A DNA stretch of 64,000 nt, from the NCBI GenBank assembly GCA_963816185.1, contig CAWFJJ010000005.1, forward strand, positions 128,001 to 192,000, written 5' to 3'. The number at the start of each line of letters is the position of its first letter. Position 1 is the stretch's first letter. This DNA is from Thermoanaerobaculia bacterium (lineage in GTDB: Bacteria > Acidobacteriota > Thermoanaerobaculia > UBA5066). Of the stretch, positions 33,136 through 36,895 are shown one piece after another. Both the position numbers and the translations under genes were made by a program. Under the pieces are notes generated by a model that was not told the DNA's origin, ran no database searches, and saw only the letters and a list, made by a program, of their open reading frames with translations.

Positions 33136-34515
33136 TCAGCCGGTCTCGAGACCGTAGTGCTTCGTCTTCTCCCAGAGGGTCTTTCGGCTGACGCGCAGGA
33201 GCTGCGCGGCTTCGCTTCGGCGCCCCTCGGTGGTCTCCAGCGCGGCCTTGATGGCCTCGATCTCCGCTCGCTCGACCGCTTCCTGCAGGGTCGTCGCCTG
33301 TGGGGCGGCGGGAGCGCGGTGCGGGGCGGAGCTCGCCGTGCGCACGTTGGCGGGGAGGTCGTCGATCGTGATCTTCGAGCCGGTGCAGAACAGAGCCGCC
33401 CTCTCCACGACGTTGCGAAGCTCCCGCACGTTCCCCGACCAGTGATGCGCGTCGAACGCCTGCAGCGCCTCCGTGGAGAATCCCACGACCGCCTTCTGCC
33501 TCGCGCGCGTGAACTCCTCCAGGAACGACCGGGCCAGGATCGGGATGTCTTCCCTTCGTTCGCGCAACGGCGGGAGGTGAATGGTCACCGTGTTGATGCG
33601 GAAGAAGAGGTCCTCGCGGAACAGACCTTCTGTGATCTCCTCCTCAAGCGGGCGGAGCGACGCCGAGACGATGCGGAAGTCCACATTGATGGTGCGCTGC
33701 GAGCCGAGCCGTTCGATCTGCCGCTCCTGAAGGACGCGCAACAGCTTGACCTGGAAGGAAGGGGGGAGCTCGCCGATCTCGTCCAGGAACAGCGTGCCTC
33801 CGGACGCGGCCTCGAATCGCCCGATCCGTCGGTCGGTCGCACCGGTGAATGCGCCTCTCTCGTATCCGAAAAGCTCCGATTCGAGCAGCGATTCGGGAAG
33901 CGAGGCGCAGCTCACGCGAATGTAGGGGCGGGCTCGCCGCGCCGAGTTGTAATGGACCGCGGAGGCGACGAGCTCCTTGCCCGTGCCGCTCTCTCCTTGA
34001 ACGAGGACGTTCGCGTCGGAGTCGGCGACCACCTTGATCAGCTCGAACACCTCGTGCATCTGCTTGCTCTTGCCGATGATGCTGCCGAACGAGAAGCGCT
34101 GCTCGAGCTGCTCTTGAAGGCGGACGTTCTGCTCCTTGAGCGACCGGAAGGAGCAGACATTGTCGAGGCGCAGCAGGAGCTGCATCATCGAGAACGGCTT
34201 CGTGATGAAGTCCGCGGCGCCCTGCCGCATGGCGTCCACCGCCGAGTCGATCGTGCCGTGCGCCGTGATGATGATGACCGTCGCGTCGGGCTTGAGGGCT
34301 TTGACGCGTCGAAGGAGCTCGAGGCCGTCGACACGCGGCATCAGCAGATCGGTCAGGACGACCTCGTGACCCTGCCGCTCGAACTGCGCAAACGCTTTCG
34401 CGCCATCCTCCGCGACGTCCACCTCCCAGCCTTCCTTGCGAAGAGCGTCCGCCATCGTGATGCGGAGAATCGGCTCGTCCTCGGCGATCAGGAGTCGGTT
34501 TCCACAGAGTGTCAT
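33136..34515 (-). CDS. NtrC-family sigma54-dependent response regulator (REC-AAA+-HTH)
   Basis: AEDE, TDLLMP receiver; [23 protein letters not shown]-terminal [18 protein letters not shown]. Confidence 0.96.
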
Positions 34516-35987
34516 GGCGTTACTTCTTCGGCCTGCGGGGGGTGGCTCAGGGGCAGGGTGATCCGGAAGGTGGCTCCCTTGCCCACCTGGCTGTTCACCT
34601 CGATGGTCCCGTTGTGAGCCGCGACGATATTATAGCTGACCGCGAGGCCGAGCCCGGTGCCCTTGCCCACGTCGCGGGTGGAGAAGAAGGGGTCGAAAAT
34701 GCGCTCGCGGATCTCTTCTGGAATCCCGACTCCCGTGTCGATCACCTCCGTCACCGCGTTCCCGCCGGTGCGTCGCGTGCGAAGCGTGAGCTTTCCCCCC
34801 TTCGGCATGGCCTGGATGGCGTTCAAGACGAGGTTCAGGAAGAGCTGTTCCATCTGGAAATGATCCGCTAGCACGACGGGCTCGACCGGCGCCAGGTCGA
34901 AGAGCACCTCCACGCGGTTCGCCCGAAGCTGATATTGAGCCAGCTCGACCACATGGCGGAGATTCTCGTTGAGGGACGTGGGCTCGGGGCGGATCTCGCT
35001 CGGCCGGGAAAAATCCAGGAGGTTCAGAACCGTGTGCTCGATTCGCTTGATGCCGTCCTGCACGAGGGCGAGGTATCGGTCGCGCATCTCGACGTCTTCC
35101 GGGTGGGCGACGATCGCCTCCAGGCAGGTGAGGATGCCCGCCAGCGGATTGTTCACCTCGTGAGCGACTCCCGCGGCGAGGGTCCCCACGGCGGCCATCT
35201 TCTCCGTGTGGGCCAGCCTGGCCCACCGCATCTCCTCCCGCCCTCGCGCTTGCTCGAGCTCCTCCATCGTCCGGTTGAAGGCCGCGGCCAGCTCGCCAAC
35301 CTCGTCCCATCGCTTGACCGGAGCACGTGCTTTCAGATCACCCCGCCCGGCCTGCCTCATGGTGTTGTGCAGGTTGAGGATCGGCCGGATCAGCGTCTCG
35401 ACGTAGACCGCGGTGAGGATGGAGCTTCCCAGCATGAGGATGAGCGCCACGAGGCCGGCGCGCTTGGCGATGCCGCGAACCTCCTGCTCGATCGGACTGA
35501 GGGAGAACCCGATGGCCAGGGAGCCCCAGAAGCGTGTCGAGATGCTGAGGGACGTGCGGACCTCGAGAATCCGTTCCCCGGACGAGGCCGTGCGCTGCTC
35601 GACAAGGGAAGCCCCCCCGACCGGAGAACGGTACAAAGCTCGCCCGAAGCGTTGCCCGATGAGGTTCCAACGGTTGGAGTGGGTGACGACTCCCCGCTGG
35701 TCGGTGATGATGACGTAGCGCACGAAGTCGCGGTTGCGGTCGATCAAGCCGTCGAGGTAGCTCTCGATGAGCCCCTCCTCCACGACCGCGCCCAGCTCCC
35801 CGTAGACGAGCGCGTCCGTGACAGGCACTGTAAACGTTTCTGCGAGGGCCCTTCCGCGCGCGACGATCTCGTCGTAGCGAGCGCTACGCTCGTGAATCAC
35901 AGCCAGCACGGTGACGAGCCCCATGGTCACCGCAATGAGGGTGTTCGAGTAAAGGAAGAACTTCAGGCGAAGACCGAGAAACGCCAT
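34512..35987 (-). CDS. Membrane sensor histidine kinase (2 TM, periplasmic domain, HAMP, HisKA, HATPase)
   Basis: Start ATG 35987 ([13 protein letters not shown]); [45 protein letters not shown]. Confidence 0.93.
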
Positions 35988-35989
35988 GT

Positions 35990-36895
35990 TCACTGCCGCG
36001 CCGGGAGGCACTCCCTCCTCATCGCCGAGTCGGAGAGAGTGAGCGCGTTTGAGCCGAACACCCGCCGGGCGAGCTTGCGGATCGGGTCGTATTCCTCGTC
36101 GGACACGGGCACGAAGCCTTCGGAGAGCTCTTCCTCCCAATCCTTCATTGCCGCCGCCACCCAGCGATTCTGGCCCGGGAGGACGGCGAGAACGCGCACG
36201 AGCTGCTCCCGAAGTGCCGGCGGCGTTCCGGGGGCCAGTCCGAGCACGAAGTTGGGAATCTGATCCGAGCGGGCCAGGACCCGGAGCGCCTGTCGCGCCA
36301 CGAACTTCTCCCCCACGATGTCGCGCACCGCGCAGGCATCCACCTCTCTAAGAAGGACCGCCCGCGCCGCTTGTTCATTTTGGGCGTAGTACCGGCAGCT
36401 GAGGTTCACGCCGACGCGCAGGCCGGCGTCCTCGAGCATCCCGCGCGCCACGAGGCTGGACGCCGTCGACATCGGCTCGCCGAAGCCGAACTTCTTGCCG
36501 GCCAGCTCCTCAAGGTGCTGCAGCTTGCTGTCGACGCGAACCATGATGAGGCCGTGATACGTGGGCTTGCCGTGGGTGTTGAGCTTGACCACCGGGATGA
36601 CCTGGCAGGCTGCGTGAGCGCGCGCATAGGTGTAAGGACCGAGATTAGCCATCGTCAGCTTTCCGGCGCAGAGGTCCTCCACTGCTTTTTCATAGGAGTC
36701 GACGAGCACGAGATCCCAAGGCTCTCCCGTAGCGCTTTCGAGATAGTTGGCCAGGGGTTGGTACTTGAGGTACATCACCCGGGGGGTATAAACGCTCACG
36801 ACCCCGAAGCGCTTGCGAGGCGACGGCTTTGCGGGTGCCGCGGCCGCGCCGGCAGCCAGCAAGACGACACCCACCAAGCTAGCGAGCGTTCGCAT
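35990..36895 (-). CDS. PhnD/phosphonate-binding-like periplasmic oxyanion-binding protein
   Basis: Signal peptide; YQPLANYLE, LGPYTY, YHGLIMVR..S, LAGKKFGFG...STASSL, DEEYDPIR. No ABC permease adjacent; directly upstream of the kinase. Confidence 0.85.
   Translation of the reverse strand: MRTLASLVGVVLLAAGAAAAPAKPSPRKRFGVVSVYTPRVMYLKYQPLANYLESATGEPWDLVLVDSYEKAVEDLCAGKLTMANLGPYTYARAHAACQVIPVVKLNTHGKPTYHGLIMVRVDSKLQHLEELAGKKFGFGEPMSTASSLVARGMLEDAGLRVGVNLSCRYYAQNEQAARAVLLREVDACAVRDIVGEKFVARQALRVLARSDQIPNFVLGLAPGTPPALREQLVRVLAVLPGQNRWVAAAMKDWEEELSEGFVPVSDEEYDPIRKLARRVFGSNALTLSDSAMRRECLPARQ

Follow-up and report, generated by a model that had tools for sequence, protein, structure and literature searches.

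Gene content and organization of the locus

The 64,000-nucleotide (nt) stretch of a Thermoanaerobaculia bacterium genome analyzed in this study (assembly GCA_963816185.1, contig CAWFJJ010000005.1; hereafter the window) contains three translationally coupled genes on the minus strand at positions 33136–36895, here designated X, S, and R, which lie within a run of genes for dissimilatory sulfite reductase (dsr). The gene X (35990–36895) encodes a PtxB/ArrX-like periplasmic binding protein of 301 amino acids (aa) that belongs to PF12974, as identified by Pfam, AlphaFold2 (AF2), and Foldseek; S (34512–35987) encodes a 491-aa histidine kinase, identified by Pfam, by alignment, and by AF2 plus Foldseek analysis of its periplasmic part; and R (33136–34515) encodes a 459-aa NtrC/AtoC-type sigma-54 activator with a REC-AAA+(GAFTGA)-HTH_8 architecture, identified by Pfam, NCBIfam, and sequence. 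Domain calls throughout were made with Pfam and NCBIfam profiles and their cut-offs, and structures were compared with AF2 and Foldseek. The ATG of S (35987) is located 2 nt past the TGA of X, the start of R overlaps the stop of S as ATGA, and the ATG of X sits 17 nt within a cysG-like siroheme synthase gene (36879–38648, minus strand), which forms an open frame from an ATG at 38648 and matches NCBIfam CysG with 423 bits, above the cut-off. No PhnC/PhnE-type ATP-binding cassette (ABC) genes were identified beside X in the window or in the flanks of related loci, and the ABC genes of the window are a single ABC-2 pair (13.5–15.7 kb).

The trio belongs to a long minus-strand array that comprises, from high to low coordinates, a dsrM2K2-like pair, dsrA, dsrB, dsrL, dsrN, a TPR gene, dsrC, dsrT, dsrM, dsrK, a dsrJ slot, dsrO, dsrP, a CoA-disulfide-reductase-like gene, cysG, X, S, and R, followed at its end by a cytochrome c-TauE fusion, a TIGR02186-like membrane protein, and an H+-pyrophosphatase (H+-PPase). 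The genes aprBA (56390–58745) and qmo-like genes are located divergently on the plus strand. The assignment of dsrAB (50758–53058, minus strand) is based on NCBIfam matches above cut-off (TIGR02064, 572 bits; TIGR02066, 495 bits), and the fusion gene (31293–32957, minus strand) encodes a multihaem cytochrome c joined to a TauE/SafE anion permease (TauE, 2.6e-43; Cytochrom_c3_2, 9e-9). These three, dsrAB, aprBA, and the fusion gene, are the predicted targets of the trio in the window. The initial annotation, made from the sequence alone, had described a PhnD-like binding protein without an ABC transporter, a kinase, and a GAFTGA activator, coupled to each other, overlapping cysG, and encoded inside the dsr run. 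All of its coordinates hold and the Pfam domains were found; the overlap with cysG is the 17-nt one at the start of X, and dsrAB, L, N, C, T, M, K, O, and P together with aprBA were identified around the trio.

Conservation of the cassette in related genomes

A scan for X loci with one genome per species yielded 54 loci, of which 53 (L007–L059) were kept as relatives and one (L060), with an X homologue only 26% identical, was set aside. Synteny was counted by script from tblastn searches with the window proteins over 20-kb flanks, and Acidobacteriota lineages are named in the record titles of 48 of the 53 loci. The kinase gene S directly follows X in all 51 testable loci and R follows S in 45 of 46, the exception being the divergent, low-GC locus L055. 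Upstream sequence of 5.5 kb or more, the requirement for testing dsrK/O/P, was available in 38 loci, and 36 of them have these genes upstream in the same orientation (exceptions L049 and L055). The common order in the relatives is dsrC-dsrT-dsrMK(J)OP, the CoA-disulfide-reductase-like gene, (hemA), cysG, X, S, and R. Because the arrangement of the trio recurs in 53 loci of other genomes, it is not due to chance. In L049, X is preceded by a gene for a membrane protein of PF03601, a "putative sulfate exporter" family. Genes located past R in the relatives encode OprO/P-like (Porin_O_P) porins in nine loci (three representatives scanned), TauE permeases in six (one scanned), and cytidylate-kinase-like/BON proteins in five (one scanned).

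In one cassette-bearing relative, aprA is found in four pieces (G051:C7:627648–629551) with an in-frame TGA within two of the four matches, which reflects either a broken gene or assembly errors.

The binding protein X

The protein X matches PF12974 (Phosphonate-bd) with an E value of 1.4e-50, and its hydrophobic N-terminus with a putative, Ala-rich, cleavage-like site can be read from the sequence. It belongs to a family of more than 120 proteins with 46–86% identity, whose members are titled "phosphonate/phosphite binding protein" in their sources. Its scores are below the NCBIfam cut-offs both for PhnD (105.7 bits; cut-off 261.1) and for the phosphate/phosphite/phosphonate subfamily (105 bits; cut-off 112.05), and its match to the putative selenate binding protein family is weak (57.5 bits; cut-off 250). 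Among solved structures, the best sequence matches are PtxB (6e-19), ArrX (7e-14), AioX (3e-7), and PhnD (9e-3). The AF2 model of X (28 relatives) has a predicted local distance difference test (pLDDT) score of 92.6, and Foldseek matched it to PtxB with an E value of 2e-23 and to ArrX with a TMt of 0.86–0.89 and a root-mean-square deviation (rmsd) of 2.3–2.5 Å. Among the matches listed, ArrX gave the highest TM-scores and the lowest rmsd, and the structural match to PtxB is about as good as that to ArrX. A search for fused, longer homologues of X found none, which is weak evidence.

Residues of X were mapped through an alignment with Escherichia coli PhnD and through the PhnD–AioX equivalences printed in Badilla (2018; PMC5908839), and residue columns were counted over 28 aligned family members. 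In the oxyanion cradle, Y47 and Y93 of PhnD correspond to Y68 (26/28) and Y113 (25/28) of X, and S127-T128-S129 corresponds to S143-T144-S/A145, while PhnD H157 corresponds to His173 of the family alignment (23/28). The amine ligand of PhnD, Asp205, is replaced by Phe216 (27/28), so that the amine-binding acid is not kept, and the region of PhnD Glu177 aligns to a gap in X. The arsenite-binding Cys106 of AioX (PhnD Gly65) is likewise not kept and corresponds to Gly86 (27/28). Since the cradle is conserved and both Asp205 and Cys106 have been substituted, the pocket of X looks suited to a small inorganic oxyanion, and suited neither to arsenite in the manner of AioX nor to aminoethylphosphonate. 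Invariant residues specific to the family include Arg39, Arg120, Arg178, and Arg191. Five cysteines (76, 97, 167, 188, and 296) are nearly invariant, and this odd number might provide an added thiol- or sulfitolysis-based response.

The kinase S and the activator R

The kinase S consists of a first transmembrane segment (~9–31), a periplasmic domain (~32–172), a second transmembrane segment, and HAMP (6.8e-12), HisKA (1.1e-10, with H276), and HATPase_c (1e-27) domains. Residues 32–172 were modeled as a single Cache/PDC fold (AF2 pLDDT 87.8), and Foldseek matched this domain to the sensor domains of WalK, CitA, DctB, and DcuS with TM-scores of 0.7–0.78; a weak Pfam sCache_3_2 match and a protein-atlas lead were also obtained. 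The periplasmic domain is conserved like X, with a mean identity of 53–55%.

The regulator R contains Response_reg (4.5e-28), Sigma54_activat (9.9e-70), and HTH_8 (2.6e-10) domains, and its GAFTGA motif occurs as "YERGAFTGA". Its best NCBIfam match is AtoC (484 bits), under the cut-off of 714. The gene rpoN was found in the genome, and no second sigma-54 activator was identified in the window or as a recurring gene in the flanks of the relatives.

Sigma-54 promoters and upstream sites

Upstream of dsrA, a candidate sigma-54 -24/-12 element with one mismatch (GGGCACAAGGGTTGCT; 53148–53163, minus strand) is located 90 nt before the ATG. It is preceded by two candidate upstream activator sites: a palindromic proximal one, GTTACGGTCGAGTAAC (53257–53272), 109 nt upstream of the -24 element, and a distal one, GTTACGTTTCCGTTAC (53348–53363). 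A perfect -24/-12 element, TGGCACATGCCTTGCT (56225–56240, plus strand), lies 150 nt before the aprB ATG (56390), and a composite GTCAC-N6-GTAAC-N12-GTAAC (56042–56074) is present in the divergent intergenic region between aprB and dsrM2. Past the R stop and ahead of the cytochrome c-TauE gene, there is a weaker sigma-54-like element, TGGGACTTGCTTTGCC (32964–32979, minus strand), with a single GTAAC half-site (33067–33071) ~90 nt upstream of it. The sigma-54 promoters that the initial annotation had placed in this cluster are thus represented by a perfect match at aprB and a one-mismatch match at dsrA, in a genome that encodes rpoN.

With at most one mismatch, three sigma-54 matches occur in the window (0.78 expected), two of which are those before aprB and dsrA; the third (28541–28556) lies inside the H+-PPase gene and was taken as chance. 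The pentamers GTTAC/GTAAC occur 23 times in the 64 kb, seven of them within the intergenic regions of dsrA, aprB, and the cytochrome c-TauE gene. Matches to GTTAC-N6-GTWAC with at most one mismatch number eight by strand, or four sites, against 0.64 expected, a count that none of 100 shuffles reached, and these four sites fall as one pair upstream of dsrA and one adjacent pair upstream of aprB. Exact GTTAC-N6-GTWAC occurs at only three sites in the 5.09-Mb genome searched, two of them before dsrA.

Similar elements were found in the relatives. Over 830 kb, sigma-54 elements with at most one mismatch number 26 on the operon strand versus 10 on the opposite strand; in 11 relatives such an element is located 109–365 nt past the R stop, and in seven an element lies between dsrC and dsrT. 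GTTAC/GTAAC reaches 6.9 per kb within the 250 nt that precede these elements, versus 0.37 per kb overall, an approximately 19-fold enrichment. Ten of the 16 exact sites in the relatives are upstream of a -24 element, at a spacing of 99–118 nt in nine of the ten, as compared with 109 nt in the window. Among five relatives examined for dsrA, a -24/-12 element precedes it in three and an exact site is present in two of those, including L068, in which the 16-mer is identical to GTTACGGTCGAGTAAC. In the same five relatives, aprB is preceded by an element (at most one mismatch) in three and by a site in four, and the composite GTCAC-N6-GTAAC-N12-GTAAC is common to the window, L077, and L078.

The dsrC-dsrT promoter of the relatives has no counterpart in the window, because the dsrT ATG is located there 17 nt past the dsrC stop. 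Across 33001–53000, a sigma-70 scan returned no promoters (1.0 expected) and a terminator scan returned 11 terminator-like sites (10.8 expected), which is not above chance; in the window, neither promoters nor terminators were detected from dsrA down to the trio.

Several further occurrences of the motif were observed. The third exact site of the genome (G000:C6:23787–23802) lies ~10 kb from a sigma-54 activator gene (C6:12846–13337). A GTAAC-N12-GTAAC pair with the same spacing as at aprB (18700–18721, plus strand) is located within the 3′ part of a 1115-aa open reading frame, ~800 nt upstream of a set of genes for an unknown protein, a cytidylate-kinase-BON protein, and a TauE permease (19525–22920); such a set follows R in five relatives, and no -24/-12 element with at most two mismatches was found before it in the window. 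In L032 (12176–12191), L046 (3126–3141), and L059 (1756–1771), an exact GTTAC-N6-GTAAC lies inside the kinase gene at its 3′ end, with the activator gene beginning ~100 nt farther on, and may represent either an autoregulation site or a coding coincidence.

Comparison with known sensory systems

AioXSR and ArxXSR are three-component systems by which arsenite oxidizers sense arsenite. The AioXSR, ArxXSR, and ArrXSR systems combine a transporter-less sensor protein of the PhnD family with a kinase, and the Aio/Arx regulator is of the AtoC type and acts at an RpoN promoter, as described by Badilla (2018; PMC5908839). The AioR consensus is GTT-N10-AAC, with the footprint GTTCGGATTTCCGAAC, as described by Shi (2017; PMC5335332). 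The trio resembles AioXSR/ArxXSR in its X-S-R gene order, its transporter-less PhnD-family X, its AtoC-type sigma-54 R, for which an RpoN promoter of a respiratory enzyme is the target (predicted for the trio), and the proximity of the module to the bioenergetic genes under its control (predicted in the present case), and the predicted GTTAC-N6-GTAAC sites are a more specific version of the 16-bp GTT-N10-AAC frame. We assign the trio to the XSR type because its gene layout, AtoC-type regulator, predicted RpoN promoters, and predicted 16-bp site all match those of Aio/Arx. The likeness of S and R to AioS and AioR is one of description rather than of direct sequence comparison, and a plasmid tblastn search for annotated AioX returned phnD-type genes only, among the 40 matches listed. 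Different from AioX, X is nearer to PtxB and ArrX (6e-19 and 7e-14, versus 3e-7) and has Gly86 at the arsenite Cys106 position; furthermore, the predicted targets are dsr and apr genes instead of molybdoenzyme genes, and the hosts are Acidobacteriota-type lineages. The architecture itself is already known, and what is new is its predicted wiring to dsr and apr genes.

The arsenate-sensing ArrXSR system of Chrysiogenes arsenatis (PDB 6X6B, 6XL2, and 6X8W) provides the protein with the top TM-scores for X among the matches listed. As we predict for the trio, it responds to a compound that serves as terminal electron acceptor in anaerobic respiration. One PDB entry of an ArrX mutant is sulfate-bound according to its title. 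ArrR of Chrysiogenes is CitB/FixJ-like and without an AAA+ domain (Badilla, 2018; PMC5908839), whereas R is a sigma-54 activator.

The initial annotation had pointed to the tetrathionate and thiosulfate sensors TtrS and ThsS as precedents for a phosphonate-binding-like domain in sulfur-oxyanion sensing, which agrees with Daeffler (2017; PMC5408782), where the sensor domain of TtrS is described as PhnD-like and ThsS as found by a PF12974-based search. As predicted for the trio, a PF12974-type domain is tied there to sulfur-oxyanion sensing (proposed for TtrS), and the system is encoded beside the reductase genes under its control (Daeffler, 2017; PMC5408782). TtrS and ThsS, however, carry the PhnD-like domain and the kinase in one polypeptide, whereas X is a separate protein and S has a Cache domain instead. 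TtrR and ThsR are not known to be sigma-54 activators. The description of the trio as a "split" TtrS-like sensor is therefore not retained, since AioXSR/ArxXSR is the nearer precedent and S has a Cache/PDC domain of its own. Periplasmic binding proteins also report ligands to membrane kinases in TorT-TorS-TorR and LuxP-LuxQ, and through TorTSR the substrate of a respiratory reductase induces that enzyme; the binding-protein family, kinase architecture, and output regulators of these systems are all unlike those of the trio.

The same genome contains a second X-S-R module directly before a gene for a ChrA chromate transporter (G000:C25, ~364054–367987; 6055–9988 in L075), which is also present in a same-genus genome (G003:C1; 5800–9580 in L076). 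Its proteins are 33% (X), 35% (S), and 40% (R) identical to those of the trio, and the GTTAC motif is absent from it. This chrA-linked module may be a sensor of a chromate- or sulfate-type oxyanion. A sigma-54-like element is located just upstream of its binding-protein gene and points away from it.

Proposed mechanism and alternative explanations

The regulatory link from the trio to the dsr and apr promoters is a prediction that is well supported by comparison. On balance, we consider it probable that the trio is an XSR three-component sulfur-oxyanion switch for dsr, apr, and anion-channel genes. Secreted X would bind a small inorganic oxyanion in the periplasm, and the liganded protein would dock on the Cache/PDC domain of S, a putative contact; S would then phosphorylate R, which is predicted to bind the 16-bp GTTAC-N6-GTWAC sites ~110 nt upstream of the -24/-12 elements and to activate the sigma-54 promoters. 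In the window, the targets would be dsrAB (with -L-N-C-T-MKJOP and following genes), aprBA, and probably the cytochrome c-TauE permease, and in the relatives they would also include dsrT-MKJOP and the OprO/P-like anion porin. The likeliest signal would be the respiratory substrate, sulfate or sulfite, with thiosulfate as a possible one. As the trio follows dsrA in a single array of genes that all run the same way, its own level would rise upon induction, and positive autoregulation is therefore plausible.

Several observations weigh against this interpretation. We infer sulfate, sulfite, or thiosulfate as the ligand from the regulon alone, and the closest solved relatives of X bind phosphite (PtxB), arsenate (ArrX), or arsenite, with no wild-type sulfur-oxyanion binder among them. 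The X copy in the window is the sole one of the 28 that has Ser147, Gln172, and Asn173 in place of the family His, Asn173 being the pocket position of PhnD His157, and at position 145 it has Ala, a residue found there in 9 of the 28; its ligand binding may thus be different or weaker. The Cache domain of S could, in addition, bind ligand by itself. With respect to the promoters, the TGGGACTTGCTTTGCC element has two mismatches and a half-site only, and sigma-54 matches with at most two mismatches number 19 in the window against 15.5 expected, which is not above chance, so that only the matches with at most one mismatch and their positions are informative. In two of the five relatives, dsrA is located directly behind another gene and no promoter of this kind was found within 600 nt of it. 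The genome encodes ~35 sigma-54 activator domains, and we accordingly link the sites to R because they lie close to it, are conserved with it, and resemble the AioR site. Lastly, aprA was not found in 2 of 15 cassette-bearing genomes, which, if real, would favor sulfite over sulfate as the signal.

One alternative is that S senses directly through its Cache/PDC domain, responding to an organic or inorganic ligand or to a redox or envelope cue, with X as a modulator or second input. The sensor domains of CitA, DcuS, and DctB bind ligands directly, and the periplasmic domain of S shares their fold and is as conserved as X (mean identity 53–55%). Nevertheless, X adjoins S in 51 of 51 testable loci, with S starting 2 nt past the X stop in the window, and the chrA-linked paralogue keeps the pair of X and Cache kinase, its 35% identity in S spanning the periplasmic part. 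The LuxP-LuxQ pair offers a precedent for a kinase that depends on a binding protein. Another is AioX-AioS (Badilla, 2018; PMC5908839), and on these grounds we regard direct sensing by S as unlikely.

A second alternative retains the mechanism and replaces the ligand with an oxyanion of phosphorus, arsenic, or selenium (phosphite, phosphate, arsenate, or selenate), which would couple dsr and apr expression to another nutrient or toxic anion. It draws on the top matches of X, namely PtxB (6e-19; Foldseek 2e-23) and ArrX (7e-14; TMt up to 0.89), on the family title "phosphonate/phosphite binding protein", and on the weak NCBIfam selenate-binding match (57.5 versus 250 bits). However, X scores under the NCBIfam cut-offs for phosphorus-binding families, AioX Cys106 is replaced by Gly and PhnD Asp205 by Phe, and neither the window nor the 20-kb flanks surveyed around the 53 related loci showed any ptx, phn, ars, arr, or aio gene. 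Instead, dsrMKJOP accompanies the cassette in 36 of the 38 loci that could be tested, and the predicted targets are dsrA, aprB, TauE, and the anion porin, which makes such a ligand quite improbable.

It is highly unlikely that the trio governs only the immediately downstream porin or TauE gene(s), that is, uptake or export, while the dsrA and aprB sites serve another of the ~35 activators: although the commonest position of promoter and site in the relatives is directly past R (11 loci) and sigma-54 activators are many in the genome, one 16-bp motif at ~110-nt spacing precedes dsrA, dsrT, and the post-R genes alike, two of the three exact genomic sites are at dsrA, and no second activator is present in the window or recurs in the flanks of the relatives.

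If the sulfur-oxyanion switch operates as proposed, the trio might, as we tentatively suggest, constitute the first sensor dedicated to the terminal electron acceptor in dissimilatory reduction of sulfate or sulfite. In it, a sulfate- or sulfite-binding X would act through a Cache kinase on an AioR-like activator, with dsrAB, dsrTMKJOP, aprBA, and the anion porin and permease in a single regulon, and the module would move together with the pathway. The whole island with its promoters is present in this genome and was not found in the 24 congeners searched.

Origin of the dsr/apr island

Among the 41 genomes searched, dsrA was found only in this one and in none of 24 genomes of the same genus and 16 of the same order, including the unpublished genomes G025 and G030; these same-genus and same-order relatives also yielded no close homologue of X. 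By contrast, a YchF-like housekeeping gene of the window is 83–95% identical in nine same-genus genomes. Because dsrA was not found in congeners although this housekeeping gene is so similar in them, the dsr/apr/qmo island (28168–63999), together with its sensor and promoters, was probably gained laterally from an Acidobacteriota-like source. The nearest relatives of the island are in Acidobacteriota metagenome-assembled genomes, and identities to the nearest Acidobacteriota-type loci are 54–60% for X, 73–74% for S, 82% for R, and 85–88% for DsrK.

Implications for sulfur respiration and sensing

In the literature checked, we found no description of the on/off control of dsr and apr in the uncultured Acidobacteriota-type organisms that reduce sulfate or sulfite in peat, soil, and sediment. 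Term searches of the main texts of Hausmann (2018), Diao (2023), and Dyksma (2023) gave no mention of such a module; the sole occurrence of "regulat" in the main text of Hausmann (2018) concerns the absent suyR gene, and the sole "sensor" in that of Dyksma (2023) is a level sensor. One uncultured reducer of this type is described as able to respire oxygen and reduce sulfate in alternation (Dyksma and Pester, 2023; PMC10564751). The conserved set of sensor, regulator, and DNA sites provides a testable model of a respiratory switch, and the combination of GTTAC-N6-GTAAC with a -24/-12 element is a signature by which the regulon could be predicted in metagenomes. The trio is also a candidate natural part for sulfur-oxyanion biosensors, in the same way that AioX and ArrX have been put forward by their authors as arsenic sensors (Badilla, 2018; PMC5908839). 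It would extend the XSR architecture past arsenic to a predicted new class of ligand with a comparatively well-defined regulon, and the chrA-linked second module is present in the same genome.

Neighboring genes

The fusion of a multihaem cytochrome c with a TauE/SafE permease downstream of R suggests a redox-coupled anion transport. The C-terminal tail of the CoA-disulfide-reductase-like gene between dsrP and cysG (38686–39036, minus strand; ~6900–7050 in L021) matches rhodanese with an E value of 0.012, which does not reach the cut-off, and a rhodanese domain is not claimed for it; in this respect it resembles persulfide or polysulfide reductases. A DsrD-like N-terminus on dsrL is likewise not claimed, with no Pfam match to it. 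The cysG-like gene has a C-terminal extension of ~130–150 residues without a Pfam match (36882–37337, minus strand), which overlaps the start of X, and the cysG genes of the relatives are of comparable length.

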